Below are positions 1 to 29,012 of a DNA stretch of 34,136 nucleotides, piece after piece; within the stretch, counting starts at the first letter, position 1; each line of letters begins with the position of its first letter. Source of the stretch: Catajapyx aquilonaris (Eukaryota); assembly GCA_000934665.2 (NCBI GenBank), contig JYFJ02004207.1, positions 1 through 34,136 on the forward strand, given 5' to 3'. Both the position numbers and the translations under genes were made by a program. The notes beneath the pieces were generated by a model that was given only the letters and a program-made list of their open reading frames with translations, made no database searches and had not been told where the DNA came from.

Positions 1-179
1 TGTATGTACACGTTATTTTCATTATCTTCGCATTAAAACTATAGAAGTTACAGCCATTTCCCAGTGCCTACTTACTTCCCACCCACCCTGTATATCTTAC
101 CATGTGTTGGTCTGTTTTAATTATGGAGAAAAAACAAATAACAATTTTAAGAAAAAAGAGCACCACGTAGTGATACTTC

Positions 180-380
180 AGGCATTTCATTGCATAATAC
201 ACAGGGACTATTGGGTGGGGAACATACAAAGGGTAGGTTAAATGCTGATCTTTCCTAATAACTTCTACATCTATGTGCAATAATTATGGACACATCCAGC
301 GTCATAAAATGTGGTCATTCAGCCGCATAATATGGTGTGGAACTACCTGACTTTTGCGAAATAGATCAGTGAAATTTTGT
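180..380. repeat. Diverged copy of ~8235-8435
   Basis: Shared gcatttcattgc, gactattgggtggggaacat, caaagggtag and cctaataacttc. Confidence 0.9.
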
Positions 381-699
381 TGTTTTGCACATTCTACGTC
401 ATTTCCCGGTCTTGACTTTTTGAAGTGAGGATGTGTGGACTGGTATTCTTGGCCGGAGGTGGCATCTGTAGTCATCCTTCTCTATTCATTAATATCAAAT
501 AGTTGTTCCTTAGGTGGAGTCTACAATGATGGTGGCTCTAGCACCAATAGTCTCTATGCGAAGCCAGCTTGAACAGTAATCCGGTGGCGGTTCTTTCCCA
601 TCTAATGGCAATGCATTTTATTGACGCTTCCTTGTTCTCAAGCAACACAGCGGCTCAAGTGGCAAAAATTCCATCAGCTGCATGGTGGTAATGGTGTAA

Positions 700-905
700 A
701 ACACAGTCAGGTGTAAAATGTAATTAACTCGTTGATGGATGGAATAGACTTCCAGCTTCTTACTCATATTAAGGGGCTAGATATCGCAATTCAGTTCAAT
801 GTTGCCCATGTTGATCGCCATGTGTGCTGTTTCATATTCGTGTCGGCACACACCAACAGCGTCTCATTCGTCCTGGAGAACACGCAGGACGATTCTACTT
901 ATTTT
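700..905. repeat. Diverged copy of ~8720-8930
   Basis: Shared caccaacagcgtctcattcg(t/c)cctggagaacacg..gga.gattctactta. Confidence 0.9.
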
Positions 906-1004
906 GCAGAAGTGTAAGCATGGCCTCCTGGTTTTTTCAATCTCTTTTAACCAACTAGGAAATTGTTGCCGGTGGTGATGAAGTGTCTATTGGTGTATTT
1001 CCTA

Positions 1005-1200
1005 TCTGCCTCAGCGGCGAGTTTCTCCTCTCTCAACGCTAGCATTTTCTCCCGAAAAATGCTGGAGTCACTTGCCATCCGGGAATGTTACATGTTACCA
1101 GTTACTGCATGTGTGAATAATATTATTATACCCACATAGTTGGACAGGTGTCACTTTGGCAGGCAGGTCTTTATTTAAATATGACAAGTTTAACTGATCC
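1005..1200 (-). repeat. Diverged copy of 16460-16660 (sequence downstream of the L core: KVTPVQLCGYNN...RMASDSSxFREKM)
   Basis: Shared blocks gctggagtcacttgccatccgg, catgttaccagtta and catagttggacaggtgtcactttggcagg occur in both copies in the same orientation. Confidence 0.9.
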
Positions 1201-1699
1201 GCATCCGCTTGCGCATCAAAATCTATGTGCGTATTAACAGGGTCCTTTGCTAATCTGTAATACGATGCTGCAATTCCTTGTCTATTTGTTACCCGCCAAT
1301 AATTTTGGCACATCGAAATTGCACATTTTGCGATGTTTGTTTATAGTTAACAGACCGGAAAACATTTCCGAGCAATATAGTGCATGTACTTACATTCGTA
1401 TATTTTGCAATGTAGCCGTGTTGATTGTTGTGTGGATACATCAAGTGCATTGCTTGTGATGCTGCACTGGTAAGAGAATGACGATATTGTTTCCTTACAT
1501 CAAAGGGTCATTGCTTCCCTGGTTATGCATTGGGAGATGCTTCAATTATTCGTCGACAAAGCCGCAGAGTCAACAATCCTATTGATTTATAAAATAATTT
1601 ACTTAATTTTTAGGCCGCAGTGTACAGTTACGTCAGTATTTAACATGGAATCCACAAAAGGCAAAGGTTCAGCAGCCTCGTCTGATGCTTCATTCCAAG

Positions 1700-2045
1700 C
1701 CAGGCAACCAACCGCTTCAGAAGACACCAGGCGAACCTTATTGTTGCGGGAGCTATTGTGAGTACTTTGATCGTTTGTTATTGTTATCTAGTGGTTCGAA
1801 GCCCACTCTCGCAAGCGTCGCTCATTGGGGGTTTTGTTACACTTTAACTGTACGAGTATGTTATCCAAATGCACCGTAGGTATTGATCTGGAAATGGCCA
1901 ATGTCAATTCACATTTTTGCCAACAAAGCCGTAAGTTCATTTTGCCGATCGAGCCCTCATTTCGAAGGGGATCCTTCTCCTCTGACATCTCGGAAGTGAT
2001 GGAGTTCGCAGGCACGTAGATGCTGCCTTGGTACTGTTGGCAAAG
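1700..2045. repeat. Unidentified module present four times (also ~10600-10900, ~13140-13335, ~19295-19595)
   Basis: Core atggccaatgtcaattcacatttt...caacaa is shared. The flanks (cttcagaag, gtggttc, tgccttg) are shared by most copies. Confidence 0.9.
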
Positions 2046-2189
2046 TTTTTTTTGACACTACTGTACTAGAATACGGTCAAAGGTTACAAAATGTGCTGAG
2101 AATATATCAGTTTGGCTTGGCTTCTGACTGGTAGCGGCGTTGGCAGCGATATGTTCTCTGGGCTTCATGGTATTCTGTACAGGGTGTTT

Positions 2190-2510
2190 CATAATGATAG
2201 CACAAACGTCTGCAGCGATACAGGTCCAAGCAATGACGAACCAAAATATCTTCTTGTTCTTTTGTAAAAATTATCCGATGGCGGCGGCCACCTGTATGCA
2301 TGGGAGTCTATGGCGCCAATCGACGGAGCCGGCAAGTTTGAGGCACACCATATCTGAGAAGAAAGTCGAGGCTAATTATGCCATGGAATACGCATGCTCA
2401 TGTCTGGCTTGCACTTTCTTTCACACTGTTTAGTGCGTTCTCTTTTGCACTTCTGATATGGACTCTCAGAAGGACTTGGATATGTTCTCCCCATTCTCCC
2501 CTACATGCTG
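2190..2510 (-). mobile_element. pogo/Tigger-type transposase N-terminal remnant (HTH_psq + CENP-B-type HTH)
   Basis: Translates RGEWGEH...SEVQK, then YGVPQT..RRL and GGRRHRIIFTKEQEDILVRHCLDL, typical of psq (YGVPKTTLxRR) followed by (T)VFTxEQExxL. Confidence 0.7.
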
Positions 2511-4029
2511 CCCTCGCCTTCACCGGATCTTAATTTGCAGATAAATATCAATAAGAATAATTATCAAATATTAACAAAGTTAGTGCCTTCCAGTCGGTAA
2601 TCTGACAAAATAACCTGATGTTCCTGCGGGTAATCAGGGAAATTTCTTTGGGGAAAAACTCTGCACCATTTCTATTTCATCTAAATCAACTGACGGTCAA
2701 ATGGGCAAATGATATAGAAGAATGGGCCTTGGTGATTCACCTTGCAGTGACACTCTTAATTCGTATTGGTATTAAACCATCAGCTAGGGTACAAGTAAGG
2801 GACGCTTTATCTAGTGTATCATAAAGTTATACGAGTCTCCGGGTCGTGTCCTGGACTATCCCAGTTTTTCTTGGAGGCTGTCGCCCTCTGAACATCGGTC
2901 TATTCTGCTGACTCACCAGGCCAGGAGTGGAAGAAGCCCCTGCTGCATGTGTTTTTGGAAGCGTCTTCATCTTCCATCTCCTGGTTGTCTTTCCCACTGT
3001 TGCCGTGCTAGCTGATGTGCTAGCGTGTGGGTTAAGTGTGCCAATACATTGACAGTCGCACAAATAGTTTCCAATTTGAAGTAAGCCCAAGCGGCAGTTA
3101 TTATTACAAAAGGCTACCTCCAAGGTATGGTAGCGTGTCCATTGCTGCCTAATTCATTCCTGTCTCTTCACTTGGGCATATTCGCCCGGTGTTTTGCATA
3201 ATCTGTGGCCTTGTTGATAGGACTTCAAAGTTGTCACCTTATATCCTCTGTCATGTATATTATACGATTAACCACCAGCACAGTCAATTCTAGTGAGAAG
3301 TTGCGCAACATACCTTCCCTATAATTCAATAATTCGGGAGCGAATTCTTGGAGGCTGGGTTTCGTTTGGTTTATATCCGGTGTAACACGCGTTATAGTAG
3401 GTTTCAGAGCTCCAAATGATATTTCATAGTCATCGGCTTTGCTGAGGTAAAAGAGAAGCTTCCAGTGTAGGTACAATAGATTTTTCTGATGTGTTGTTGC
3501 CCTTCGGCGTCTGGTTTATGACTGACTGTGTGCCTGGCCACCATCAGTCTGTATGGAATAGCATATTCTTTCTTATAAGGCTCTTCAAATTTACTCATTG
3601 CATTCTACGCAAGTGTCATTTATTTTTGTTCTTTTGCAATAACTGCATGGTTATAATTTGGGGCATTATTTGTATGGAATCGGTCATCATTAAGATTTAG
3701 CAAGAGTCCGCAGGGTCATGTACTGCTGCTTCTTCAGTGATCTTGAAGCTCACTTGTTAGAATTCAGGGTAATATAAAAATCCCCCTATTGTAGAGGCTC
3801 AGTTTTCCCGAATTTCATTTACGTAAGTTATATTCTTAATCTCATGAAATATACCTCACCTTGTAGTTCCAATATCTGTAACCTGCTTTTGGCTGTTGAA
3901 TTACGATATGTTGCCGATCCACGGTTAGCTAGAGGTTTCAATATTACCAGTGCATTTCATCACTAGTGTACCGAGATTGTGCGGAGAGATTACATTTCAC
4001 TCTCTACTAATTGGCCGTATTGGCAGTTG

Positions 4030-4466
4030 ATTTGACCTGGAGATGGATGGAGAAGCAGATCTAAGTCCAGTAAACAGACTTGCCAACCTCAAGAGTTTAT
4101 ATGCTACAGAAGTGACATCTTCCAGCCTTCTCTGCTTGTTGGACAAGTGCATGAGTCATCTTTACAGCTTGTCTTTATGCAGTGTGATGAAAGAACTTGA
4201 AGAATCTCAATTAGGATAACAATTTATCTTATTCATTTGTGTGCTGCCAACTTTTTCAAGATATAAGAGTGGAAGCTTTGCAAACACTGATGATAGATGA
4301 CGACTGCATGACAAAGGAAGTCATTCCAGTGATTTTGGGATCAAGTAGAGATGATTTACAATCCGTCTCTTTGTCGAGCAGTGAGTGTGATGAATTGTCC
4401 AACCAATTGCAGCCCTATGACATGAATTTTCGAAATTCGTGGTTTATACACCTAGTTCAAGTATGA
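4030..4466 (+). pseudogene. Possible decayed leucine-rich-repeat (F-box/LRR-like) gene fragment
   Basis: Translates LANLKSLYATEVTSSSLLCLLDKCMSHLYSLSL...EALQTLMIDD...DLQSVSLS, with LxxLxL-like periodicity, a stop and a frameshift. Confidence 0.3.
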
Positions 4467-5071
4467 GTCACATAAATAAGAACACGTCTTGGCAGTTAAA
4501 TTCCCAGGTACCTGTGGCCCAGCCCATGTCAATGTAATAGAAAATGTCATTTATTTTGATATCATAAATATTTAAAATTTAGATAACTGCTAATGTGTAG
4601 CCTACATCACCCCCAGACATAATTTTTTGAGAGTCACCCCAATGACCTGGTCTAGTGATATGTCACAGTGCAATGTGAAACCATAATGTGAAATCTGATA
4701 ATATTATGTAAAATGTGTCTCAGACTGTCCTTAGTAAAATATAAGAGGTAGGGGATAAATCTGCACCTTAACAACACGGTCGGGGTTGGGCGGCGGGGGG
4801 CCTCCCGACGGTTGGCAACGTTTCGTCGCAAACAATCGGGTGCCTATTGATACTGCTGCATGGTTACATGGAACTGTGCTTTATTCTTCTTTTCGGGCTT
4901 TCGGGGATTCAATTCGGTTTGTCTCGGTGTTGCTGTGTGGCTTTTTGCTACCGCAACAGTACTGTACTTTGTTGTGGCCCTGCCAGGCACAGTACGTCGC
5001 CCATGCGTGACATTTTTAGTTTTTGCGGAGCGAAAGCGGATCTGGGCAGTTATTGTGGGTTTGTATACGCG

Positions 5072-5254
5072 CAGGATGTGCAAAAATGACCTGTACAGCC
5101 TAAAATATGGGTCAAGGGGTCAATATGACCAGTTCATTTTATGCACGTTTTGCACCCATTGGGGTGGACTACCTACCCAACAAATTTGGTTAAAATCCAT
5201 TGGAAACTACAGGATGTGCAAAAATGACCTGTAGAGCCTAAAATAGGGGTCAAG
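5072..5254. repeat. 45-bp direct repeat (5072-5116, 5210-5254) inside a probable non-autonomous element (~4600-5500)
   Basis: caggatgtgcaaaaatgacctgta(c/g)agcctaaaata(t/g)gggtcaag occurs twice with 2 mismatches. Nearby aaatttggttaaaatcc and tgacctttgacccc motifs are common in invertebrate non-autonomous repeats. Confidence 0.7.
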
Positions 5255-6278
5255 CACATGAAATAGTATGAAAAATGAAAATACAGGACCTCATTTAAAT
5301 CATATTTCAAATATTCATTGCTATTATTAAAAATAATTGTAACAGTTTTACAGTAGCGGTGTAATGACCCGGAAGGGGGGGGGGGGCAATGACCCCAATG
5401 ACCCAGGTCAGTTTGACCTTTGACCCCTCATAGAACCCGAGATATCGAGGGTCAAAGATTGGTGAGCCACCTTCCAGGTCATTCCTTTTTTTGTGCATCT
5501 GTCATAAGGTGGTGAGCAAATTAATGACTGCTTCAATTCATCACTGAACCCTCATAGGTTTCGTAATTCTATTAATTGTGTTCGCAGGATATTTTGCATT
5601 CTTCCCTCAAGACTCTAATTTCTTCAGCTTTTAGGCCGAGGCGGAGCTCCTCTTCTGCCTGCCGGAGCGCCTCTTCTGCCTGCTCCCTATGGTCAGTCTC
5701 TAGAGGATCCAGAAAATTGGTTAGCAGACTTGTTTTAGTGCTATCAGGAGAATGTAGCTGACTGATAAGGCCGGCATTTGGGAACCTTATAAGTCAAAGT
5801 CTAGATTGTCAAAATCTTGCACTTTATTCTTACTTTGATCAATTATTCATCAATAATAATAATAATTTAATGAGATTTCCATGTCTCCTTACCTATCGTA
5901 ATGATGTTCATGCAATTGTCGATAAATGCACCTATTGTCGTACCTATGGTCGATGTTTCTGTAGTGAACTGCTCTCTGCAATAGGTCAAATTCATTAACA
6001 ATACAATCTGAGTGTTTAGATCTTCAACCCTACCCAGAAGCAGGTTTTGATTGGATGTGTATGAGAGGTAATATACTAATTGGTTCCATCCGCCAGCATC
6101 TCGGCTTCTACACCAGAGGTCTGCACATTTGTCAAAAGGATAGAAGAAAAAAATTGCTGTGTTCACATTACAACTGTACACAAATTAATCAGGCAACTCT
6201 CAAGCAGAAAATCCAAGTTGAGTGGGGAATCCCCTTCACTTTGTCATCCGTTGAGAGGAGAGGAGTAGTGAGGTGGCA

Positions 6279-6609
6279 CCCTTACCGAAATTTTCTCTAC
6301 CTCGCGGCGAGGTCGCGAGACGAGCTTATGGCCACCCAACCGCATACTAGCGGTTGTTTCATTTCGCTATGTCGCGGGCGAGGTCGCGGCCAGGTGGCGG
6401 TCGCGAGGTGGGCGGCGAGGTTGTCGCGATGTGGGCTGCAAGGCGGTCAGCGAGCTAGTCGCTAGGTATACCTAGCGACAACCTCGCCGCCCACCTCGCC
6501 GCGACCTCGCCCGCGACATAGCGAAATGAAACAACCTCTAGTATGCGGTTGGGTGGCCATAAGCTCGTCTCGCGACCTCGCCGCGAGGTAGAGATAATTT
6601 CGGTAAGGG
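6279..6609. mobile_element. Foldback MITE (331 bp) with long terminal inverted repeats
   Basis: Starts cccttaccgaaatt and ends aatttcggtaaggg. Arms of ~110 bp are near-perfect inverted repeats, with an internal perfect 22-bp palindrome gtcgctaggtatacctagcgac (6458-6479). GC-rich compared with the flanks. No clean TSD. Confidence 0.9.
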
Positions 6610-8084
6610 CGTACAATGCAGTCCCATTATTGAGCATATTATAACATGAATGTAAGGACTATGCCTTGGGTTTTCACTCTGAGGCTTTATATGTAATAGA
6701 AAATGATGGCCGGTAAATTTCTTTTTGTGTTCCAACATCACGGTGGCCACTGATAGAGAATCTAGCAGTTTTGGAGCAGGTTCCATGTTCTGCATATGTG
6801 AAAGAGTAATAAAGGTCCTATGCTTGCATTAAAATTTTACATGTTGTCCAAACTGTCGGCATCATCCCTGAGTTATCTTTTAATTTGTTTGAGAGGAATC
6901 CCATGCTTTCTCACTAATTACAAATGCTTTACTGCATTCTTGGAGTTTAAATAACTATATATATTGTTTGGCTTGTTTTCTACATTGCTAGATTACTTTG
7001 GTTGTTAGTCCAAAGAGCAAACAAGTTGTGAGGACCTTTTCTTGACCTTCAGGGCTCCATCTCGTCTAGTGGTTCAGGGAATATGTTGCCTGGAGGGCTG
7101 AAAATGCCATTGTTTGTTGGTCTGTTGCTTTTGCACATTTCCGTCTTAGTTCATCGTGTCTGGAATTACTAGCGAACAATACAACTTGTGATTCCCTGGT
7201 TGTTCCGGCGTCTTCCTGCAATCAAATTGTGCAGGTTACTACACATAATAGTCTGTGAATGAACAATATTAATCCAGTAATACCCATTTGCAATTTTAAG
7301 TATTTTCTCAAGGACTGTAGAAATACATTATTTGACTTAGCGAGTTGTTTATTTTGCGTCCACTTTCACTTCATGGAGGTGCAAGATTTGTTCCCATCCA
7401 ACTAGAACATAGCTCCTTTCCAATTAAAGAAATATCACAGCTATGATTGGGAAGCAAAACCGAACTCATTTTCGCCAAAAATTGAGGGCTAAAGACATTT
7501 CTCTCACCTGAGTCTCTCGAGCTTCTTCGCTGTCCTTTTCTAGCATGTGTTGCTTCAAATTGGCTTCCCGGCGGAGTTTGGAATGTTTCGCAGCAGTGAG
7601 CGCACAGCAGAGGTTCCGTACTTTGTACGCCTGGTTCCTTTGCCTGTCGATAGCCAAGTAGATGCTGGAAATAAATCACCCTATTTGGCAAATCGTTGAA
7701 ATACTTTTCAGGGTTTGAGCCTATACACAGAAGATGTGCGATATCTCCTGGCAAAAAAATCCGCGAAAAATTGATATCGTCCTGGATTAGGATTGACCTT
7801 ACATAGGCATTGAAGTAAATATTTTTACACATTGACCATGAAATGTGTCTTTGCCCTGGTAAATGTCAACAGTGAATTCGTGTGATGTATAATGATTTGT
7901 GGCACCATTTAGGGCAGTTGGAAATCATGAACTGAATTAAACGTCTGCCTCTCATGTCGACTATTGGGTCAGACGAGCTTCGATTTGACTTAATGGTTGT
8001 AACTTCATCCCATGCAGCGTTTCTTATCTTCCCAATCTTGAGATGATGATTCTGACACTGTTCAAACTGTTAAAGTAGCAAGTT

Positions 8085-8205
8085 TATTTCTCAATATAGG
8101 CGCTACTTGATATTTTCAGCTCTGGCTGTAGCACCCGCCAGCTATACACTTTTGCTGATGCCCAGGCCAAAATAGATGGTTGTGGAAGGCCTGCATTATT
8201 GAATG
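8085..8205 (-). pseudogene. Paralogous fragment of the bunya-like L EVE
   Basis: Translates FNNAGLPQPSILAWASAK, matching FNIAGLYQPPILACASAK at ~16.9 kb. DNA at 8170-8205 resembles 16921-16956. Confidence 0.55.
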
Positions 8206-11200
8206 GTAATAATCCCACATGTGTTCCTTAATCTCTGCATTTCATTGCTTAATACACTGTGACTATTGGGTGGGGAACATGCAAAGGGTAGATTAATGCT
8301 GCTCCTTCCTAATAACTTCCACAGCCAAAGAGAATTATTATCATGGCCACATCTAGCGTCACAAAATGTGGTTATTTTTATCCATATAACATTGCTTGAA
8401 ACAACTTGACCTAAAGGTGTTGCGAAATGGATCGAAGTGATCCTGGAGCATTTTCCTTTGGTTTTCATTGGTCACTCTACAACGGATTTTTTATTAGTTC
8501 AATAATTTTCCTCGCCAATTTGGCCTGTTTCGGGTTGTTTCGGGTTCATTCCCCAATCCGCCTCGAATGGACTGAGGGTATTTCCCTATACTAAGCGCTT
8601 GCCCCCAATGATTTGGAATCATATTGGTCCTGGTTCGGTCCAGCTAAATCTGGGATGCGCACTGTTCAAATTGTGTTCCGTATGAAAAAAATTACAATCA
8701 ACTGTATGGTGATAATGCTGTAAAACTTGAGTCGAGATTAAAAAATTAATATTACTCGTCTAAGGATGGCATTGTCTGATTGCTTGTTCTTCCTGGTAAG
8801 GGGCTGGGTGTCCCAATTCGGTGTATTGTTGCCGACGTTGTTGGCCACGTATGTTGTTTCATTTTCGAATCGGCACGCACCAACAGCGTCTCATTCGCCC
8901 TGGAGAACACGTAGGAAGATTCTACTTACGTATTTGGCTTAGATTTTCCTGGCCAGTTTTGGCTGTCGAGGGTCATGTTGAAGAGGAGTCCCCCTATTAA
9001 ATATAATTTTCTTGGTCCCGATTCGGCCCAGCGAAACCACGTCATATGCACTGTACTTATATCGTATGAGGTCTGTCAATATGTGACCCAGGGTTGCATC
9101 CTGATTTTGTGATTGATGTACGAGTATAAGCTACCATGGTCCTCAGGCGTACTTTGTTTTCCTGCACATTCGATGCAGAATTCGCATTGTAAGTAGAAAA
9201 ATTTGCATTCTATCATTGTCTAAGGCCTATGGAATACCCACTCTCGTGTACGTCTTTGGATCATATTGGATTTTCCCGGTAATTCGGCATGGTTCAGTCC
9301 CTGCTGGTGGAAGGCCACAACTGTCCTTCTCTGTAATCATGTTTGCGTTCTGTATGAGTAAACAATTGGGGCCAGTTCAACAATAATATTGCAAGCGCAA
9401 GCTAGTTCTATGCACCGATCATGGTAATCAGCATCTGCGGAACAGTCATATGGCACCAAAGTGACAGTGGATCACATGCTTTCCCTGGATTGTGAGTCTG
9501 CGAGAGAACTTTCCACACAGCTGATGATAATAGTTGAACATCAGTGTCTCCTATGTCCATTCCCTTCCTCTGACTACTACATTCAATTACATTTCTATTG
9601 CAGGGTGCATGAATTTTTATGAACGTGAAATTTATTTGCCCAGAGTGCATAATAGGACTTATCAATTTCCAATGGCACTGAAATTAAATTGTCCACCTTA
9701 CTATTTCTGTTTTACTGAATATAATCATTTTTATTACTGCTATGGAATCCTTTCCAATTGTTAGTGTTCAGTTGTCTTGTGTGAGGAAAGGGCATAATCA
9801 CATGGCCGTTTGTGAACGTAGTAATATTACTTCACTAACAAGGCCAGTTCAGCTTGAAACTGGAAAGTGGAGGAAATATTAAGAATACTATTCAAGATGC
9901 TCCAGCATGTTTAAGCCGGTAATATTTTGGCATACCACGTGGTATCAATACTTCTGTCTAATTCTTCATAATGTGAAGATGGTAGAGTAATTATGTGAAG
10001 TTGGTAGAGTAATTATTATTTGAAATATTATTAATCAGAAAGTGCACGTGACACCTACGGCATTTTTTGTCGTATCAAACAGTTTTGCTTCAGATCAGGG
10101 CATCTCACTATTGTGCCTTTGAACATGAGGGATACTTCTTGCTGATCTGCACTTATGATGGGTGCCACCGGACATCTACGGTGACACCTATCTGGCACAA
10201 TAGAGTTCCACAAGAAAAATTCGCAGGAATTATTGGTGCCGTGGGTCTAATATACGCAGAGTATACATGCTCGACGCCCTTCTTCATGCGGATACGTGAT
10301 CATTGTGTTGGAACACAAGGAATAACAAATGTTTACTAGTATGCAACTTATTAAGCCCTGTGGCACCAATCCAAACGCTTTCACCTTTGTACTGTACAAT
10401 ACAAAGGGATAGTCTTTTTGAATGGACACCTGCAGGATTTTACAAATGAAAATATAGTTGCCTATAATGATCAGCATGGGACTGGCGAATGTCGTCGCCA
10501 CACTTGCTGGAATCACCTTCATCTTGCTGGATTGGTCTTTCTTCAAAAAGGTTTCATAGACCGTCTCTTTTCGACTTGGATCACAGTGGTTACCCTTACA
10601 ATGACAGCCGCTTCAGAAGACAGGAGGCAAGCCTTTTTGTTGCGGGCGCGAGTGTGAGTACTTTGACCATTTGATACTGTTATCCAGTGGTTCATAGCCC
10701 AATCTAGTACTCGTCGCTCTTTGGGGATTTTTTTACACGAAAGCAACTAGTTACTGTCGTCGTAATGTGGAGATGGCCAATGTCAATTCACATTTTCGCC
10801 AACAATGTAAGTTCATTTTGTCGACTGGCCATTTCCAGGGAGCTCCTTATCTTCTGATCTCGGTAGGGATAGAGATGCTGCCTTGATGCTGTTGGCATAG
10901 ATCATTGAAACTACTAGCGTATGTCCAAATTTGGAGAGAACATTGGTGTCCCTGAATAATGGGTGGCCTTGTTCACTAGCTGCTCTGTTTTCCGCTGGTC
11001 GGGTTTATTTTGTCGACTTGCGCGGTGTTATTATTGACTGAACTGATGTTGTCTTTCGTGCGCGTTGAGTTCCCTCATTGTCTGTCGCTTGCTATTAGCG
11101 AGATGGGTTTATCAGTTGACGTATTGCATAGTTGTTCTCATGGTTTTTCTTGTTTCTATTATTAGTGACTTTGTAACATAAGTACAACTGCGATTAGTCT

Positions 11201-19624: not shown

Positions 19625-19990
19625 ACTACACGCGATATCATGCCGTCTTTTTTTGCACTTCCGATATGGCCTCTCACTTGGATATGTTCTCCCCATTCTT
19701 TCCTACGCTGACCTCGTCTTTATTGGATCTTAATTTGTACATATATAGCAGTAGTAATTATAAATTATTAACAAAGTTGGTGCCTTCCAGTTTGTAATAA
19801 CCTGATGTTCCTGCGGGTAGTGAGAGGAATTTCTTTAGAAAAAACTCTGCACCTTTTCTATTTCATCTAAATGAGCTAATTGCCTAATAGGAGAATGATA
19901 TAGAAGAACTGGACTTGCTCCTTCTCCTTGCCAGTTCGTATATGTATTAAACCCGGCCTCAGCTACGGTACAGTAACGGATGCTTTAAGC
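19625..19990 (-). repeat. Paralog of 2440-2820: psq N-terminal piece joined to a LINE ORF2 fragment
   Basis: Shared ttttgcactt(c/t)..gatatgg, ggatatgttctccccattct, ggatcttaatttg, tgccttccagt and cctgatgttcctgcgggta blocks. Confidence 0.85.
19785..19920 (-). mobile_element. Non-LTR retrotransposon ORF2 post-RT fragment (copies also at ~2590-2740, ~12940-13075, ~24055-24155)
   Basis: Translates ASPVLLYHSPI.QLAHLDEIEKVQSFF-KKFLSLPAGTSGY, matching the LINE post-RT motif P.LLY...W....IEKVQ..F.K..L.LP..T. Four diverged copies, all in the same orientation. Confidence 0.7.
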
Positions 19991-21249
19991 AGACCGCGCA
20001 TACAGTTCACCTGCGTACATTAATTAACAAGTTGTTTCATCCAGTCAATGTGTTTTTGATAACAAATATGCAACTCGGCATGTCTGAAAGCTGCTGCTGC
20101 TTCCGCCATGTAAACAGTTGCCGTTTATCAGTTATGATTTTAGGAGCAGTATTTCTTAGCTACCAGCACCTTCTGGTGTCGACGTTCTTGCAAATTACAA
20201 TCTGTCGTCATGTCTGCAAAAATATTGCCCGACAGTATGGTACGTGATCTTCTTGGTCTTCGCCATCCTCATGTATTAAGAATCTGTGCAGGACAACACA
20301 TGCTCTTGGAACTCTGACTCCGTCTGGCAGCCAGAATACTAATCTCACTAGACGTTCTGCAAAAAGAAACAATAGAGATGATTCAATGAAAGAGTGGAAC
20401 ATATCCAGTCTTATTATCTTACCTTGGTCGAATTATATAATAATTGAAAACTCTTTTGGTGGAGTCTAAGCTTATCGGCGTGGGGAAGGCCTGAAGAAAT
20501 TGGGCCTCAGTTGGTAACTTGTATTACCATTATGACAATTTAATCACATTTCTTTCCTCCCACGCACATGTTTGAAATGCAGTACTGAGAGCTGCGACGT
20601 AATTTAGTTGTTATGAATACGTGGACACCGTCCTGGTGAGTATACAAAAACTGTCCCAATTTATTTCTCTGAATATATGCATAGTAAAAAATTCCACAAA
20701 AACTGGGAATGAGAAAGCACTAGCACCACGACGCTTTTCCTGCCTCTAAGAGTCTTAAGGGTTTAAGTGCACGCAAGATTTCCACATAAAAGGAGAGAAT
20801 AAAAGGGCTGCACATTACATCACTGCAGGAATGTTGTGTAGCAATCCTTATGTTCTGGTAGAAATGTGTAATCTCGTTTGTTATTTGGCTCGCACATTGC
20901 AGAACAGAAACTTGCATGTTCTGGATGCCCAAGTCTTCTTTCATGACCTCTGAAAATCTGTATTTTAGTGAGGAAATAATCTGATGTTTAATAAAATGCA
21001 AGGCAAAGGTCATGATTTGTCTATTCATGCCATTATTTTCTCATTGGTTCTTATCTTCCTTATCTTCCCTTGACCTTGGTCTGTTGTGTCCAAGTCTGAC
21101 GGTGAAGTATATTTGACTTAAACACCAAGTGTAGCTATTTTCTTTGACAGATTTGTGTCTGGGTAAACCAACTTTTCCACTGGTGGGAAACTAGAGGTTC
21201 CTCAAGGTGTGTGTCAAATCATGATTCAGCGAGGCTCATGGTAGAATCA

Positions 21250-22560
21250 AGGAAGAATCTGATTGTTTACAAGAATTATCCATGCTTGCGATATAGGTGT
21301 AGCAACCAAGATGAAAACAGTAATTATAACATAATAATTATTGTCAGTTGTCATACAGAAATGCATCACCTGTCTGGTGGATTGAACCATGTGAATTGAT
21401 CGTGGGTGTGCCATTTCAAGAATTCGTACAACCCTTCTGGAAGAGCACTTCCGAAATGTAAATATATATCGTTCACATTCAGGCGCGATTTTCAATCGTT
21501 CGCAGGAATGTCACTTTGACACACAACCTTTTGAGTCGGCAAGTTATGGAACAGCGCACGCAAGTTATTTTTTGATTGACCTGTCTCCCATAATTCATAC
21601 TCACCAGCTGTCAACCTTCGGAAGCGTATTTCCACCCAGGGGGATTATTAGTTTCAACTTGCAGTACGGTACTGTTTATAATCTACTGTAAATGCATTAT
21701 TCTACAAACTTTGCTCAATTAAGCTGGACTGCCTAGCCTAATGTACGTCCATTTCTGATATCCCGGTAGGTCGTAGTTTACTTGCCGATATAAGTCGATG
21801 TGATTGGATGCTTATGTCCGGAGCAGGTCAGCCAATAATGGTTTCTGTAAAGGTGCAATTTTCGGGGATGTGTAGACACACATGGAAACGGTATTTTGAA
21901 GTGTATAAGGGGGAGCTGATTGTATCGTAGAAAAACTTGGCCGCATGCAAATTGCAAATGCAGTCATACAGGTTTTGAGATGGATTCATCAGTTAACTCG
22001 CCAACTTCTTTCTCATAAATTGATAAGTCTGTTTCATGCAGTACTACTGCAGCATACAAGTTCACTGATGGCAAAATAATTGCGCTGCTCAGTTAAATTT
22101 TTGCATGTATGAATTTATTCTGTCTGTTAATACCACATATTGAGTGCATCACATGTTTGATGATTCCAAGACCAATCCATAAGTACCGTGAAAAGTAAAT
22201 ATTTGCTTGACATGTTCCTTGGTAGGATATTTTGGCCATGGTGGATATACGCTACAGTTCACAACTACTTCTCCAATGGATATGCGAGCTGGCAGGGAAA
22301 AATGCAGCAGAAAAATTCGTCTTTGGATGAGATATTTGGAACGAGTTCTGGATGATTTGCTGTCGTTCCTGTGCGACACCCAAGTCGTCCTTGGTAGGTC
22401 GGTATCTATCCCTCACAATTTATTCCCCTGAAGTTACTGCCAGGAAGTTGCCACAAATTGTACTGCTGTTGTGTCCTTATTCCCACCCAGCATTCCTAGA
22501 ATAATACCAATCAGCTGTCGCAGTCGTTAGTGTACACGAAATGATGACTTCAGGTATCAG
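21250..22560 (-). pseudogene. Possible decayed viral envelope glycoprotein (bunyaviral Gc-like) EVE
   Basis: Cys-rich - strand fragments appear in Gc-like order: DWSWNHQTCDALN (22177-22139, fusion-loop-like W-x-[C]-x4-C), KITCVRCSITCRLKRLC (~21570-21520, domain III-like), then a hydrophobic YYVIITVFILVATPISQAWIILV (~21335-21270, TM-like). Heavily disrupted. Confidence 0.35.
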
Positions 22561-24229
22561 TCCCGTATCAGTATTAGTTCCCGTCTGATTATGACTAATG
22601 TGCTGCATGATCTCACTGATCTCATGATGACGTCTCAGATTGTGTAGGGGAAACATTGAAGGTGTAAATGGGACTGGTTATGAATCACATCTAAAGGTAT
22701 GCGCAGCAGGTACTGATGTTCATCTGACATACAATTATTGGTATGACTTATCCCAGAAAACTCCTAGAGATTCACGTCATAATGCAAAATAATGTGGGAT
22801 ACAGTTGTGTTTGCATGAGGATAGATCAATGTGGAATATAAGCATAACTTAAAATGTATTAACTAGTGACTAATAGTATAGCATGATGATTCCTTTGGTT
22901 TTCATTGGTCACTATATAGATTTATAAACTTCGTAGCACCTCGTATTACTCATATTAGTTATGAACTTCCTAAGATTGAATAGAGCTGCCCTGCCATCTG
23001 CCAACATTATAGTAAATTAAATCCACCCACAATGATTGTTTCGTAGTTCAATAATTTTCCTCGGCAATTTGTCCAGTTTCGGCTGTCGAAGGTCATGTTG
23101 AAGAGGACGCGCCCAATTAAATGGAATCGTCTTGGTGTCGGTCATGCTTCATGTTGCACATGGATGTTCTGAACCTATAATTGTTTCATCGCTCGTCGAG
23201 ATTTTATTCGTCTCCGCACGCACGGATATGTTAGTAGAAAACACTTCGCGCTACTTTCTAACTACTATGGCACGTCGGGACTAATACAACAACCTGCTAA
23301 CACAGCCTCCGAACAACAGTAGTTAACTAACTGTAAGAGCAAGAGTCGAACATTGCGATTATCTTTCGATGGAACGTCAGCCAAGCTGGGAAGAAGTGCA
23401 CTTTCAAGTGGCAAGGCTCTCGTTATTCGAGGTAGAGTGCGTATTCTACCTCGAGTATTGAAACCGTACATTGAAATCGGTGTTACTAAGAATTTCTTCA
23501 GATCGAGGTAACACTGGTCAAAATAATGCATTTAGTGTACTGTACCACACTACACAAGTGTGGTCATGGTAGATGTCCATTTCACTTGATTTCACTATAT
23601 TTTTGACCAATAAAGCTGCGTATTATTAAGCAGTTTGTTTTTAAAGGTTACTTTTATAACCTATCAGAAATAATGTCTGCTAAGATGTGGTTGAATGTTG
23701 GCAGTTAGTTGCAATGAATTTAGAACCCTATCCAAGATTATGACTATTATTATTTACATTTATGGGATTATGGCAAAGTATGCAGATTTCGTCGTCCTGA
23801 TTTTAACTGAACGAACTCTGGGCTTAACTCGATTTTGTCACTTTTGTGGGCAATAATGAGCCATTAATGCGTTTTGCACATTTTCTTATTCTCATATTCG
23901 CAATTAGGAATTGCAATGACGGCATGATGAAAGCAATAATACTCGTAGTTTGTGCAATGAGCACATGGAATTAAAGCCATTTTGTAACAAGAGTCGTCCT
24001 CATATATAGACGGGCTATCTAACTATACAGTATTATGTGATACATATGGCTATACTATAACCTGATCTTCTAGTGTGTATTCAGAGGAATTTCTTCAGGA
24101 AAAACTTATGTAGCTTTTCCATTTCATCTAAGTGAGTCAACTGAAAAATAGGGGCAATTCGTCCTACATTTTCTGGAGGAGTAGGGACCCGCGGAACACT
24201 CGCCATCTGGCAGCCTGAATGCCCTCATT

Positions 24230-24865
24230 GCACCTTTTGCAGAAACCATAGAGATTATTCTTTACCCTGGTTCAATGCCGAAGAGGAGGCGAAACATGTC
24301 CAGTCTTTTTATCTTACCTTGCTCACCTTAAACAATAATTGAATACTGTTTTCGTGAAGTGCAAAGCCCGGGGAAATTGGGCCTCAGTTGGAAAGCCTCA
24401 TCTCCCAGAAGTATACGTACTTCTTGATGTCACTTCCAGGGAGCACGGCATCCGATGGATATACGAACGCCTCCTGGTCTAGGTTATGACCCATGGCTGA
24501 GTCTTTGAAGATTACATCATCTGAGTGGGAACCGTCGTCGTCTAATATCCATTCCCTGGAACTTGTGCACAGCTATTGCCATTATGACAGTTCCATCGGG
24601 ATCCTTTAAAAATATGCTTTGATTAGACAGAGAGGCACTGGTAAAATGGTAGTGACAAGATTGCTTCTTCTACTTCAATGATCTTGAACCCCACTTTTGG
24701 AATTCAAGGTAATTTTAAATATCCTCCATTGTGAATGGTAAGTTTTACTTGATTTCATTTATGTATATAATTTTAACCCCATGAAATATACCCTACCTTA
24801 TGGTTCATATATCTGGAACTGACAAATTTCGGCTGCTAAATTGCAATGTTTTCCATCAACTACGC
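24230..24865 (-). repeat. Unidentified coding-like module (SDAVLPGSDIKKYVYFWEM...), partial copies at ~13920-14520, 11320-11455, 20355-20540, 26020-26240, 3725-3900
   Basis: Shared cccagaagta(t/c)acgtac, aaattgggcct(c/g)ag, tgagtgggaaccgt, ttctacttcaatgatcttg and atttcattta blocks. Several copies end at tcttacctt, a - strand AG|GTAAGA donor-like site. Confidence 0.85.
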
Positions 24866-26241
24866 CACAGCAGTTGGTGGCCAGCAGTTTGGGAAATTCC
24901 ACCCAAGGGGGTGACGACTTCTGGCTTCCGTTGTACACTTTGAGTGGCTACCTTGGTGGCTTCCTGGTTCCGTTGTACGCAAAAATGATGAGTCGTCAGC
25001 CCCTTGATTCCACCTGCTGGAAGTATCCCTCAGCAGCTGTAGCCCATTGCTTTCAGTCACATACCTAAAATGAAATAATAGATATATTTTCAACACATAG
25101 AAAATAAATCGATAATAACAATCATCATTAGTTAAAGTGTGTTAGAGTACTCATGTGCAGTTGTAAGGGCCAGTTTCATCAGTTTTAATAGAAATGTCTG
25201 TAAGCAATGACATTAGTGATTTGAAATGTTTTTGTAACGCGGCAACTATAGCAATGTATCAATTTTTGATAGTGTGTCTAGCCAGTCAGCTGTTGTGATG
25301 GGAGGTCCAGTTCATTCAGACAGGGAAGTGCCTTGAATCCAACAACTCGTCCCGTTGAGCAGGAGACTTTTTCTTCAAGAACAAGCTCTCATCATCAGCG
25401 AAGTTACCGCATCTTGGAGAGTTTTTTATTATCTAAAGCCACGGGCAGTATGATTTGCTATTTATGGGAAAGACCGCATTTATTCCTTAAGGTGGTATTT
25501 TGGGCATTACTTTTTTTATATAGAATGGAAGTTGCGAGCCAAGCGGGCTGCTACTCCTTTTCATGAGGACGTTGCATGAAGAATGTTTCATGAGGTTTAT
25601 CGCTTACCCTCTACGCCAGCTCTGGTCCTTTACTGTTCTAGTTTGGTAAGCCATCATCTTCTAATGTCGGAGTTTGATGACCGTTCCAGGGGATGTGTCC
25701 TCCAACCCACACATTCGGATCCAGGCGACAGACAGGACCCCAACACTTCTCAACCTGATCTTATAGTCATTGCTATTGCCAGTGTACTACATCGGCTGTA
25801 TGACAAATACATCTTGCACACAAAAAGGTTCCTTCCAAACCTTGTCTTCAGGTCTCTTAGAAAAGAACAAGGCTCAGCCCTGAACTGCCACAGCTCTTCT
25901 ACCACACTTTCATCTTCTTTCGTCGTGTCTTGTGATCCCCAGGTGTTGTTGACCATTCCCGCACTAGAAAAGTGTGGAGGACAACACACGCGCTTGCCAT
26001 TCTGTCAACATGTGTACTCCTAGGAACTTGTAATCTGGCCCAGCTGTTGCCATTACAGCAATTATTGCATCTGGATCCTTAAAAAAAAGGGGGGGGGGGG
26101 CTCCGATTAGTCAAAGAGGCGCTGGTGGTGGTGACAAAATGCGTCTACTCCTCCTACTATTGATGCTCACATATTGGAATTCAAGGTAATTCAGTTTTCC
26201 CGGATTTCATACTCTTTTATTTATTAATTCCATAAAATATA

Positions 26242-27165
26242 CAGGGTGTTTCCGAACTAACTTTACAAACTAATAGAGGGGACCAAGACAAACATATTTC
26301 ACATAGGAACACGTGTCCGGAAACGCCATCTAGAAGGGGTTCGTAGACGAGGAACAGGTGCGCTCAGACGCGTCACGCGGGAGTCGCCAGGCAAGCGGAC
26401 TGTTAAGTTAACTAGGTGACGCGCGGATCGTAAACAACTACGCGATACGCCATAACCTGGCAACAGATCCATTGTTGTTCCCAGCTCTTTAATCAGCCAA
26501 CTACGATACAATGAACAAACGCTACATCAGTACTCCGAAACAAGGCGTGACAACTTCACCAACGACAAAGAACAATGTACTACAGTACATAACTAAGTCA
26601 GGGTGTGAGCCACGGTCACAATAGCTGCTCAAAATGACGGCCGCCTCCGGAAATGCAGGCAGTGTAACGTCGCACGATGTTTTCGCTCATCCCGAGTGAA
26701 GCAGGCTTCATCAGTGAAGAGGACGCGGCAAGGGAATCGCGGGCTCCTGTCACATTGCTGCAAATACCATTCGCAGAATGTCACTCGCTGTGCGTAGTCC
26801 GGCGGGCCCAATTGTTGCACCTGTTAGGGTTACCAGTACTGCATGTATGACATTGAACCATGGGTTATTGCTCTGTGTACCTTTTGCCGACAGTAAGGGT
26901 GGAGTTGTTCCTCATGTATAGGACCTTCCACACGCTTACGTGGCCGACGTTCATGTCATGGCCAATGGCCCTTGTACTGGTGGTGTGGTTTGCTGCAATG
27001 CGCTCCAGTACATCTTCGAACTCCGCTGTCCGAACAGTCCTCAAGTACGCGTCGTTGGCAGACCTTCGTATAGCAAGTGACCCCGTTTCACGAAGTCGTC
27101 GATCGACGGATGCAAATGTCGGGTGTGTTTGGCTTCTTCTCAATAAAACCTAAACCTATGGCGTA
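26242..27165 (-). mobile_element. Tc1/mariner-superfamily transposon remnant (DUF4817-type HTH transposase) with one TIR and a 60-nt intron
   Basis: TA|CAGGGTGTTTCC terminus at 26240-26253. Translation reads HPTFASVDRRLRETGS...STRAIGHDMNVGHVSVWKVL..EQLHPYCRQK|VQQLGPPDYAQRVTFCEW...VLFTDEACFTRD (first catalytic D). The rest of the DDE domain is deleted. Confidence 0.85.
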
Positions 27166-27169
27166 TCGC

Positions 27170-27556
27170 GGTTCCACCCCCAGTCAGTTGGGGAGGGCAA
27201 TGCTGGTGCACGAACCAGAGCCTGGCCCAGACATGCCCTTCCTGGTACACAGCTCGTCTTACGTGCTGCTTGAGGTCAGCACTTGTCGGTGGTATGAGCT
27301 GGACATTGTTCTTCTTGGCAAACAGTTTGCAGCGTGCCTTGTCCACATTGGTTGATGTGCTTGTCCTGTCGTAGAGCAGGATGACGAACCTCTCAATGGT
27401 CTGCATGGCATCGTCATCTACTTGAATTGGTGCAGCGGAGAGGTCAACGAGGGCCTGTGTGAGCGCACGTAAAGCTGTCCACACTGCCCATGCTGTCCTC
27501 TTGCCATGTCCGGCGAAGCAGGTGACCGTGTCACACCCTCTCAAAGCATGAAACAT
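27170..27556 (-). mobile_element. XPG/FEN1-like (H3TH) nuclease fragment typical of Academ DNA transposons
   Basis: Translates FHALRGCDTVTCFAGHGKRTAW...IERFVILLY...VDKARCKLF...IPPTSADLKQHVRRAVYQ..VW, then after a frameshift QAL..PALPSPTDWGW. Confidence 0.75.
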
Positions 27557-27561
27557 AATAA

Positions 27562-27614
<53 letters not shown>

Positions 27615-27633
27615 TAATAATAATAATAATAAT
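27555..27633. repeat. (AAT)n microsatellite
   Basis: About 25 near-perfect AAT units. Confidence 0.97.
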
Positions 27634-28209
27634 ATAAAAAAACTAAACCCAAAAACCTTCAGTGCGGGCACTCTTACCACAAGAAGGACATGCATGCCAT
27701 TAACCTCGTCCAGGACAACAGCTCCGTCCATATACCTCTCGGGAGACGACGCGACGCCTGGCTGGACAAGAGCCCTGGAATCGGCCACATCCCTTGTCCT
27801 GCGAACCACCGGACGTCAAATACTGCATCTAGATGCTAGAACATCGTGGCAAGTGTGAGAGACTCGTGGCTGTCATTTCCGGAGACGCTGCATAGCTGAT
27901 TGAAACGCAGATGGTGACAACGGACCGGATTTGGTCTGCGAACCATAATTGGGATCACCACCCTTACCTCCGGCCCTCAGTCCGGATTGGGTCAGCCAAA
28001 CAGTTTTTGGGGAATGAGCAGAGTCGCCTCCTCGTGGTATGCCCTGGTAACGTTTCCTGTGAAATGGCTAAACGACATCAGGCGGCAACAACTTTTGAGA
28101 CAGAGGCGAAGACATCACTGATTCCCCCCTCTGTTAGTGCCTGTTTCCACCAGCATAATTTTTGTTCAGGACAAAATACAAGCCAGACTAATTTATTGTT
28201 GGTAGCCAA

Positions 28210-28910
28210 TTTTTTATTTTTTATTTATTTTTTATTTATTTATTTATCTTACCCCGTTCTGGGCCATATTGGCCCCTTTGGGGGACCTCCTTTCGTTGTT
28301 ACATGACTATTACATAACTGAGCTCTTTATAAACCCAACAATATATTTACAAACTACCCCACCCCATTTCATTCCGCTTGGTCTTCATTGCTGCTCTGGC
28401 CCGTATTTCTGCTCTGGCCCGTATTTCTGCTCACGTTGTTCCCTTCCTCCGATCTATACCAATGGTCCATGTCCCTCCTCTTGTCACGCTGTTGGTTGGG
28501 CTTTGCTCCCCTCTTCGCCATTCCTGCGCTCTCCTTCGTACCTTGCCTCTTCGGGGATGACTGTTGTGACTGTCGTGACGTGAGTTGCCTCTTCTTATTG
28601 AGCGTTTTCCATCCAGTTCCTCCTACGATAGCCTGGGGCTCTCTGGATCCTGCATCCTTCCCCTGGACCTCCACCAGATTATTTCCTTCTTCATTAAGTT
28701 GCAGCATCACTCGGTCTATCATGAGCTTGTCCATCCTCAGGTGGGCTACACTGCCCTTTTCTCTGGCTTCTAACAGGTACGGAGCCAGCTTACGCCTTTT
28801 CTCCCTTGTTGCATATGCGAAATCTTCACCCAGCCGGAAACCCGAATCCTTCAGCAGCACACCCTTTGCTTGTATCATCTGCTTATCCACAAACCGAAGC
28901 CATTTGACTA
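28210..28910 (-). mobile_element. LINE ORF1 (L1-type RRM/CTD as in CR1/L2 ORF1p) C-terminal part + short 3' UTR + A-rich tail; no ORF2
   Basis: ORF 28890-28369 reads DKQMIQAKGVLLKDSGFRLGEDFAYATREKRRKLAPYLLEAREKGSVAHLRMDKLMID (cf. LKGT.I.I.EDF...R..RK.L......R..G..A.LRYDKL.ID). A hairpin gggcca-tat-tggccc lies at 28261-28275 and an (AAAT)n/A tail at 28247-28210. An internal 18-bp tandem duplication is at 28391-28432. Confidence 0.8.
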
Positions 28911-28913
28911 TTA

Positions 28914-29012
28914 CTAGGAAAACCCTCGCTACGCTCGCAATTTCCTAGGGCGCTGGCCTAGAAAACCGCTCGCTTCGCTCGCTCTTTTCTAGGCCTGCGG
29001 CCTACAGCGCCC
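28914..29012 (-). mobile_element. Helitron/Helentron-like terminus with nested hairpins
   Basis: The - strand ends in CTAG|T at 28914. Stems are ctaggaaa/tttcctag (28914-28948), ggcctagaaaa/ttttctaggcc (28955-28995) and gggcgctg/cagcgccc. Loops carry ctcgct(a/t)cgctcgc. It truncates the LINE ORF1. Confidence 0.55.

Follow-up and report, generated by a model that had tools for sequence, protein, structure and literature searches.

Flamenco and the other flam-like piRNA clusters of Drosophila span 227 to 1085 kb, and the portions of PMC10643416 and PMC10495008 that deal with them describe enrichment in antisense-oriented LTR elements of the Gypsy family, a discrete promoter, and piRNAs that come from one strand. 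A flamenco-like locus of Aedes aegypti, EVE cluster 38, covers about 143 kb and, in the part of PMC7161354 devoted to it, is described as carrying 17 nonretroviral EVEs and 73 TEs and as giving rise to a single uninterrupted antisense transcript and to phased piRNAs.

One-way arrangements of repeats also occur in two other settings, namely the introns of transcribed units and old tandem or segmental duplications in noncoding DNA. In introns, the preference for antisense TEs is typically modest or partial and not near-total.

Here we analyze a stretch of 34,136 nucleotides (the window), of which positions 1 to 29,000 had been read in a preliminary description as a strand-biased archive of viral and transposon fragments, and as a candidate uni-strand piRNA cluster or antiviral memory locus.

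Strand polarity and duplicated segments

The strand polarity of the DNA over about positions 1 to 26,000 is real. Left of 26 kb, this polarity is accompanied by collinear duplication, and viral or TE domains are not detectable there. The region and its one prominent palindrome are as follows.

1..26000, no strand: polar tract, with more T than A along the whole + strand and with internal repeats that are all direct; its left side continues beyond the window
6279..6609, no strand: foldback palindrome of 331 bp, G+C-rich, the sole sizeable inverted repeat of the tract

Self-BLAST of the window yielded 48 HSPs, including 46 that are direct and two that are inverted, each of the latter being a self-palindrome (6279–6609 and 28946–29004). 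All 46 repeat pairs joining different places of the window are in direct orientation. When the thirds of the tract were compared with each other, 40 direct HSPs and no inverted HSPs were obtained, and nhmmer searches with profiles for 12 repeat families recovered copies in the same orientation throughout, with a lone minus match that sits within one copy. The translated self-search produced 143 matches, of which 134 share orientation and nine are opposite, and all nine fall in the palindrome at 6.2 to 6.8 kb.

Base composition is similarly one-sided. On the + strand of the polar tract there are 8294 T and 6862 A residues, and the AT skew is negative (T > A on the + strand) in all 26 of the 1-kb bins left of 26 kb, with values of −0.110 in the repeated part and −0.089 in the remaining DNA. 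The AATAAA motif is present 17 times on the + strand and 34 times on the − strand, and the + strand count is above that strand's own Markov expectation (11.2).

The direct repeats are organized into several larger segments and a set of smaller copies, one family of which includes a tRNA-like module.

182..3922, no strand: segment A, with blocks P, Q, R, X, Y, Z and part of V, and with five-block collinear chains to B and C
1744..1816, + strand: tRNA-like module inside repeat family X (ARAGORN at a relaxed threshold, one of 13 calls at ps80)
8150..12100, no strand: segment B, copied in direct orientation relative to A and C, at an offset of about 8.0–8.9 kb from A
12467..14514, no strand: segment D, a partial direct copy with Z', X, Y and full V
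16455..20521, no strand: segment C, a direct copy offset from B by about 8.3–9.3 kb
22890..23136, no strand: short direct copies of 8453–9016, found by self-BLAST and by the comparison of thirds
24004..24867, no strand: segment E, a partial direct copy with Z' and full V
26009..26248, no strand: segment F, another incomplete copy of V, also direct, at the tract's right-hand edge (nhmmer E 8.8e-60)

Block order is collinear for five blocks between A and B, for five of six between B and C, and for all five between A and C, and the chains from A to B and to C have identities of 71–92%. The offsets of the HSPs cluster, with 10 at 8.0–9.3 kb and five at roughly double that distance. More diverged copies are also present, such as the V copies at 13919–14514 and 24229–24867, which are 68% identical over 677 columns. 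Two elements, block u (11701–11833 and 19080–19219) and Z', are out of collinear order. The similarity of the copies is equal by frame strand, with 65 translated matches in + frames and 69 in − frames, and thus no coding constraint is visible. Segment C includes a single N, at position 19415, next to a G run.

A B-box-like motif, which is palindromic, is conserved in four copies of family X, and neither the tRNA scan nor the Rfam scan returned a match under default settings. Family X may be a SINE, a reading suggested by one relaxed ARAGORN call and this palindromic motif. Look-alike searches with family X and with the ORF at 27143–27613 in the index of the scan found nothing.

Collinear multi-block homology in direct orientation between neighboring segments, the mark of tandem or segmental duplication, is what segments A, B and C exhibit, with D, E and F as partial copies, and a few local duplications, arranged head to tail, would therefore account for the shared orientation. 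The bulk of the same-strand signal would then consist of collinear local duplicates, which are direct by mechanism. Once duplicates are collapsed, about four to seven independent units are left, which are too few for a significant bias. The preliminary description had itself cautioned that duplicated copies inflate the apparent bias, a caution borne out by these segments and their exclusively direct HSPs, and it had named an orientation bias no different from background after collapse as an outcome that would speak against its reading; the collapse goes some way in that direction. A strand polarity is confirmed over 1–26 kb, in repeat orientation and in T > A skew; the identities of the named coding remnants were not reproduced.

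Coding remnants and viral fragments

Pfam was run on the 352 ORFs of at least 45 amino acids on both strands of the whole window. Only three of these ORFs matched a family at E ≤ 0.01, and none reached the curated cut-off. Two of the three are included among the candidate transposon remnants below, and the third, YxzE, is spurious.

23867..24022, − strand: possible pogo/Tc5 C-terminal remnant (Pfam Transp_Tc5_C, E 0.0094, 16.7 bits against a cut-off of 27.4)
26632..27116, − strand: putative remnant of a Tc1/mariner-type transposase, split over two frames and carrying two stops (by resemblance)
27143..27613, − strand: ORF of 157 amino acids, like an unnamed eukaryotic repeat-type protein family (Atlas top score 0.96)
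28372..28944, − strand: possible LINE ORF1-type remnant, an ORF of 191 amino acids, a lead only (Atlas top score 0.88)
31204..31419, + strand: candidate Harbinger/PIF-type DDE remnant (Pfam DDE_Tnp_4, E 2e-4, 21.4 bits against a cut-off of 24.8)

At E 0.0094, chance alone would be expected to yield about three matches among 352 queries. The Transp_Tc5_C match, whose E values range from 0.0094 to 0.028, is below the cut-off and is not significant alone. DDE_1 was absent from the read-through of the three V/W copies, and the combination of DDE_1 with HTH_Tnp_Tc5 or CENP-B-type domains that characterizes pogo/Tigger elements was not found.

The − strand pieces between 26.6 and 29 kb are three in number, decayed, TE-like and weakly supported. 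The resemblance of 26632–27116 to a Tc1/mariner-type transposase is tentative; this piece has no match in Pfam or in the PDB, and a word-indexed protein search with the mariner-like ORF at 26868–27149 found nothing. For the ORF at 27143–27613, all 30 Atlas matches are in eukaryotic clusters that have no Pfam family, and there is a weak lead to XPG_I (14% of members, Atlas score 0.80); this ORF may be what was previously called "Academ." Atlas rows for the ORF at 28372–28944, which has no Pfam or PDB match, include Baculo_FP_2nd (37% of members, score 0.85) and Tnp_22_dsRBD (55%, score 0.83). AlphaFold2 models made without alignments had a mean pLDDT of 42.9 for the ORF at 27143–27562 and 42.0 for that at 28372–28944, too poor for a fold search. 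The DDE_Tnp_4 match spans positions 75–120 of the 158 in the profile, and this Harbinger/PIF-type piece lies beyond the claimed span of 1–29,000, on the strand opposite to the other TE-like pieces. In sum, the − strand carries three or four TE gene pieces with weak support, against a single one on the + strand, beyond the claimed span.

Pfam matches for the 352 ORFs on both strands did not include the bunyavirus L or Gc, RVT_1, DDE_1, mariner or LRR families, and RVT, integrase, gag, protease and env families were absent both from these ORFs and from the read-through scans. Six-frame read-through scans, with X placed at stops, recognized nothing by Pfam. The − strand from 9 to 18 kb and most of the + strand were covered at the ORF level only, and long read-throughs are less sensitive than single ORFs, as the Transp_Tc5_C match vanished in a 3000-amino-acid frame. 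For the − strand left of 26 kb, larger databases were likewise silent: phmmer with 1200 amino acids of the − strand frame at 6000–9599 gave no matches among 1.84 billion representatives, and word-indexed protein searches with the − strand ORFs at 16685–17188 and 14910–15371 found nothing. PDB sequence searches with seven pieces had a best E of 0.37.

The longest stop-to-stop ORFs are 208 amino acids on the + strand and 191 on the − strand, in keeping with the earlier statement that no coding remnant is intact. ORFs of at least 50 amino acids number 144 on the + strand and 133 on the − strand, and there are 20.4 and 20.3 stops per 400 codons, respectively, such that neither ORF content nor stop density separates the strands.

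Viral Pfam families were absent from the 352 ORFs on both strands. A scan for motifs typical of bunyavirus polymerases, RT, mariner and endonucleases located one FADD at about 25402 on the − strand and no coherent set. Three ORFs scanned against IMG/VR found nothing, a search that needs exact eight-residue words and so sees close relatives only. Sensitivity is low for short diverged viral pieces outside polymerase cores, and few ORFs were taken to large databases. The bunya-like L and Gc-like fragments of the preliminary description were thus recovered by neither Pfam, motif scan, phmmer, word-indexed searches nor IMG/VR, and the domains expected for its LINE ORF2, pogo and mariner pieces (RVT_1, DDE_1 and mariner) and for its weak LRR-like piece were equally missing from the Pfam matches to the 352 ORFs. 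Because no viral fragment was found, the idea of an antiviral memory is without support here.

Explanations for the one-way tract

The account toward which we lean is that the span is old, noncoding, repeat-derived DNA, and that its one-way look arose mainly through serial local head-to-tail duplication. A unit of several kilobases would have been duplicated serially, head to tail, to yield the three larger copies A, B and C about 8–9 kb apart, with the partial copies D, E and F between and after them, and the copies would since have acquired many indels and diverged to 65–90% identity. Direct copies are what unequal crossing-over or replication slippage would generate by mechanism, and the orientation of elements within the unit would therefore be preserved even if strand were not selected. 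A − strand DNA transposon may be the ancestor of the unit; the pogo-like hint points that way, and such an origin would also explain why the − strand is rich in A. The region at 26.6–29 kb, a more G+C-rich patch, would contain a small number of decayed TE gene pieces that are unrelated and lie on the − strand. What we infer from the patterns described above is the mechanism of duplication, where the unit came from, and that the span has no dedicated function.

Several observations do not follow directly from duplication. The T > A skew outside detectable repeats favors a one-directional process or content and is not obviously explained by duplication, unless this DNA includes more undetected copies or one-way TE debris. 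At ~9%, it is several-fold the 1–3% given for Drosophila introns in the relevant portion of PMC5786239. The breaks in order at block u and Z' suggest that some copies may be separate insertions of shared orientation, and the fact that three or four unrelated TE-like pieces at 23.9–29 kb are all on the − strand counts against duplication alone.

An unlikely alternative that would address the skew places the tract within a long intron or UTR that belongs to a host gene on the + strand, where transcription-associated mutation bias and selection against sense TEs would have left T > A on the coding strand and antisense TE remnants. The presence of the skew in every bin, non-repeat DNA included, and the lower number of AATAAA motifs on the + strand are consistent with such a gene, and eukaryotes in general have T in excess of A on the coding strand according to the portion of PMC5786239 on this subject, although the skew observed here is several-fold the Drosophila intron value given there. 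Moreover, no exon-like ORF with any Pfam family is present in the 34 kb.

We consider it rather unlikely that a + strand Pol II precursor enters from the left of the window and runs through the tract, in which case antisense TE debris would be converted to antisense piRNAs and internal duplication would have enlarged the cluster. This proposal draws on a polarity that is real over at least 26 kb, on the − strand placement of those few TE-like gene pieces in the span that have some support, and on an AATAAA count that is half as high on the + strand, but this count is not depleted relative to the Markov expectation, the orientation can be explained by duplication without selection, and no test run recovered a viral fragment. 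The tRNA-like repeat module also reads on the + strand, a weak point against the proposal. Active piRNA clusters typically contain younger insertions, whereas the material of the tract is old (65–85% identity). Internal tandem blocks are known in clusters, as in the 5-kb block present four times in an Aedes cluster (in the part of PMC7161354 concerned) and the R1 tandem duplicates in flamenco of the simulans clade (in that of PMC10495008). LTR or Gypsy domains are absent from the 352 ORFs, whereas Gypsy enrichment drives the bias of flam-like clusters in the account that PMC10643416 gives of them. Doubtful to a greater degree is the more specific version in which what is seen of the tract would belong to a + strand uni-strand piRNA source in a non-model arthropod, made of very old DNA-transposon debris rather than Gypsy and grown by internal head-to-tail duplication, in a lineage that would rely on many flamenco-like loci of other composition.

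Finally, the notion that there is no real polarity, and that the earlier list combined chance ORFs with over-reading of raw sequence, would fit the failure of most named remnants to reappear and the equality of ORF counts and stop density between strands, but it is highly improbable given a repeat orientation and AT skew that are strongly one-sided independent of protein identities.

If the tract were a piRNA source, it would represent a one-strand cluster outside Drosophila and mosquitoes that grew by internal duplication. On the duplication account we prefer, the locus calls for caution, as a few local duplications can yield the look of a same-strand archive in raw sequence. Claims of strand bias need collapsed duplicates and checked element identities before piRNA function is inferred.

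Comparison with known systems

With flamenco and flam-like clusters, as portrayed in the parts of PMC10643416 and PMC10495008 cited above, the tract shares repeat-rich content, fragments in one orientation, and internal tandem duplication, which takes the form of R1 arrays in the Drosophila loci. It differs from them in that it has no LTR or RT domain, and hence lacks the LTR/Gypsy enrichment that carries the strand bias of these clusters in PMC10643416, in that 26 kb is visible, and in that its orientation would come largely from duplication. The likeness to Aedes aegypti cluster 38 lies in a near-uniform coding strand and a tandem-repeated block, as covered in the same part of PMC7161354. 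Nonretroviral viral gene fragments, which mark EVE-rich clusters of the Aedes type, were not found in the tract, where no EVE was detected.

The antisense TE bias of introns resembles the tract in its one-way TE orientation and in the excess of T over A on the coding strand of a transcribed unit, and differs in that no exon or gene model is present in the window. Old tandem or segmental duplications in noncoding DNA are alike in their collinear direct multi-block homology, few-kilobase spacing and decay by indels. Nothing essential differs from these, the tract-wide T > A outside the detectable copies alone being left unaccounted for, and we take the tract to be an ordinary decayed repeat array.

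Strand polarity of the tract

The tract spanning approximately positions 1 to 26,000 has a real strand polarity. Self-BLAST returned 46 direct and 2 inverted high-scoring segment pairs, wherein the inverted pair consists of self-palindromes (6279–6609 and 28946–29004), and a comparison of thirds of the tract yielded 40 direct and 0 inverted pairs. Searches by nhmmer with 12 repeat families recovered 4, 2, 4, 6, 4, 2, 2, 2, 2, 2 and 2 copies in one relative orientation; the single weak minus match is located within a copy. Of these families, Zp belongs to Z and W to V. When 580 ORFs were used for a translated self-search, 134 matches shared one orientation and 9 were opposed, all nine of the latter lying in the palindrome at 6.2–6.8 kb. 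Base composition points the same way regardless of repeats: each of the 26 1-kb bins up to 26 kb has more T than A on the + strand. AT skew is −0.110 within repeats and −0.089 elsewhere, and its sign flips near 26 kb. AATAAA occurs 17 times on the + strand and 34 times on the − strand (Markov expectations, 11.2 and 19.0). Where the preliminary description saw a − strand archive of viral and transposon fragments, the 46 direct pairs and the uniform skew uphold the polarity, and the named identities were mostly not reproduced by Pfam.

The sole sizeable inverted repeat of the tract is a 331-bp G+C-rich palindrome (6279–6609) with arms of approximately 165 bp that are 83–86% complementary. G+C is 0.39–0.49 across the 34,136-base window, which holds a single N (19415), only ten short tandem arrays, no match to an Rfam family and no tRNA gene at the default threshold. 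Composition switches near 26 kb, with G+C rising to 0.46–0.49 (26000–31000). The + strand is pyrimidine-rich at 27–31 kb, with GC skew down to −0.17, and the + frame at 27902–29101 has just 3 stops per 400 codons; these features probably reflect a purine-rich coding remnant on the − strand, seen here from its antisense side. Three young two-copy direct repeats (29736–29980, 33626–33890 and 5072–5254; 45–90 bp, 95–97% identity, 138–182 bp spacing) are unrelated to the old duplicated unit.

A unit present in several direct copies

Repeat copies lie in collinear chains rather than scattered. Repeat comparison defines three larger copies (A to C) and three partial copies (D to F) of one unit:

182–3922, direct: segment A, five blocks shared with B in the same order
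8150–12100, direct: segment B, collinear with C in five of six blocks
16455–20521, direct: segment C, collinear with A in five of five blocks
12467–14514, direct: segment D, partial
24004–24867, direct: segment E, partial
26009–26248, direct: segment F, partial

Copies are 65–94% identical, and their offsets group at 8.0–9.3 kb and approximately twice that. This pattern probably records repeated head-to-tail copying of an old unit followed by erosion through indels; copying of that kind by itself generates direct repeats. The earlier caution that duplicates inflate the bias is therefore, given the collinear A-B-C chains and their offsets, the main explanation. Collapsing the copies leaves perhaps 4–7 independent units, and a shared orientation across all of them would still not amount to a strong bias. 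The placement of two blocks (u and Z′) departs from collinearity; these may have inserted separately, in the shared orientation. Similarity between copies is alike in + frames (65 matches) and − frames (69 matches) of the translated self-search, and thus gives no sign of a conserved coding frame. The reading of the span that we favor, with slightly better than even confidence, is that of an unremarkable array of old repeats that arose by local duplication.

One repeat family of the tract includes a tRNA-like module:

1709–2062, 10581–10915, 13137–13336 and 19271–19592: four copies of family X
1744–1816, +: tRNA-Thr(TGT)-like cloverleaf (ARAGORN, relaxed threshold only)

A B-box-like GGTTCGAA motif is kept in all four copies, and the module may represent either a SINE of tRNA origin or a tRNA pseudogene borne by the duplicated unit. 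It reads on the + strand, counter to a uniform − strand picture. The copy in segment C carries a long G run (19397–19428) that includes the only N and is missing from the other copies, likely a homopolymer or assembly problem.

Gene remnants on both strands

Because long read-throughs are less sensitive than single ORFs, a Pfam scan (E ≤ 0.01) of all 352 stop-to-stop ORFs of at least 45 amino acids, on both strands of the whole window, is taken as the main result. Three ORFs matched a family, each under its curated cut-off; by chance alone, 352 queries should yield approximately three matches at E 0.0094. A bacteriocin match over a microsatellite is spurious. The other two are as follows:

23867–24022, −: Transp_Tc5_C (E 0.0094; 16.7 bits, cut-off 27.4)
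31204–31419, +: DDE_Tnp_4, Harbinger-type (E 2e-4; 21.4 bits, cut-off 24.8)

Only the Harbinger-type match is credible, and it lies beyond the claimed span (1–29,000) on the strand opposite to the claimed bias. Among the 352 ORFs there was no Pfam match to bunyavirus polymerase or glycoprotein, reverse transcriptase, integrase, pogo DDE_1, mariner transposase or LRR. Read-throughs with X at stops (− strand 1–9002 and 18001–27002, three frames each; 42 tiles of 283 amino acids over 24900–29944, both strands; three copies of repeat V/W) gave nothing beyond low-complexity noise in Pfam, including no DDE_1 match in V/W. Signature motifs of bunyavirus polymerase, reverse transcriptase, mariner and endonuclease were also sought; the yield was a single FADD near 25402 (−), with no coherent polymerase set. 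In − strand translations of V/W (24490–24560 and 14350–14420) there is a short motif that may resemble the DGH.SH region of pogo DDE_1; it lies upstream of the weak Tc5_C match, in the expected order.

Left of 26 kb, the ORF survey yielded four unusually long ORFs:

7371–7865, −: long ORF
11328–11765, −: long ORF
14907–15371, −: long ORF
16682–17188, −: long ORF

Against 1.84 billion representative proteins, a 1200-residue read-through of the − frame at 6000–9599, which holds the first, had no match at E ≤ 0.001. Word-indexed searching of longer proteins gave no match for the last two, comparison of three of the four with PDB sequences returned noise only, and IMG/VR scans of three ORFs, by a method that sees close relatives only, returned no match. 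Stop density is equal between strands (20.4 versus 20.3 per 400 codons; minima 8 and 9), with 144 + and 133 − ORFs of at least 50 residues. The bunya-like L, Gc-like and LINE ORF2 pieces were thus not reproduced on either strand by Pfam (352 ORFs) or by large-database searches of a few ORFs, which would miss short, diverged fragments lying outside conserved cores; this does not prove their absence.

Remnants with some support cluster at the right edge of the claimed span:

27143–27613, −: 157-residue ORF (protein atlas 0.96; 30 of 30 matches are unnamed, Pfam-less eukaryotic clusters)
28372–28944, −: ORF, a lead only (atlas 0.88; rows with Baculo_FP_2nd and an L1 ORF1 dsRBD-like family)

The first resembles chordate and arthropod clusters annotated as “hypothetical protein”, with XPG_I as a weak atlas lead, and is probably a widespread repeat-encoded domain that lacks a curated family; it may be the piece previously called Academ. 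It starts within an (ATA)n microsatellite (27555–27634). Predicted structures of both ORFs are too poor for use (pLDDT 43 and 42). At 26632–27116 (−), two frames show a possible likeness to a Tc1/mariner-type transposase; Pfam, PDB and word-indexed searches of this region gave no match.

Residual skew and known piRNA clusters

The T>A skew continues into tract DNA that lacks detected copies, and there it is not explained by duplication. It may stem from copies that escaped detection, from decayed transposable elements whose A-rich sense strand lies on the − strand, from transcription in the + direction, or from several of these together. That the tract is an intron of a + strand gene is unlikely: the direction fits, because T generally outnumbers A on the coding strand where DNA is transcribed, whereas the skew outside the detected copies, approximately 9%, is several-fold larger than the 1–3% of Drosophila introns (both points from the excerpt of PMC5786239).

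That the tract is a piRNA cluster is improbable, and the antiviral-archive reading has lost its viral leg: viral gene fragments (EVEs) like those of Aedes-type clusters were not found by Pfam on 352 ORFs or by large-database searches of a few ORFs. As excerpted from PMC10643416, flam and flam-like clusters extend over 227–1085 kb from a discrete promoter start and produce one-strand piRNAs, their bias being carried by antisense Gypsy elements; Pfam matched no Gypsy/LTR element among the 352 ORFs of the window. The copies here are all direct, yet they lie in collinear duplicated segments. Internal tandem blocks are tolerated in an Aedes EVE cluster (excerpt of PMC7161354) and in flamenco (excerpt of PMC10495008), and duplication is therefore compatible with a cluster.
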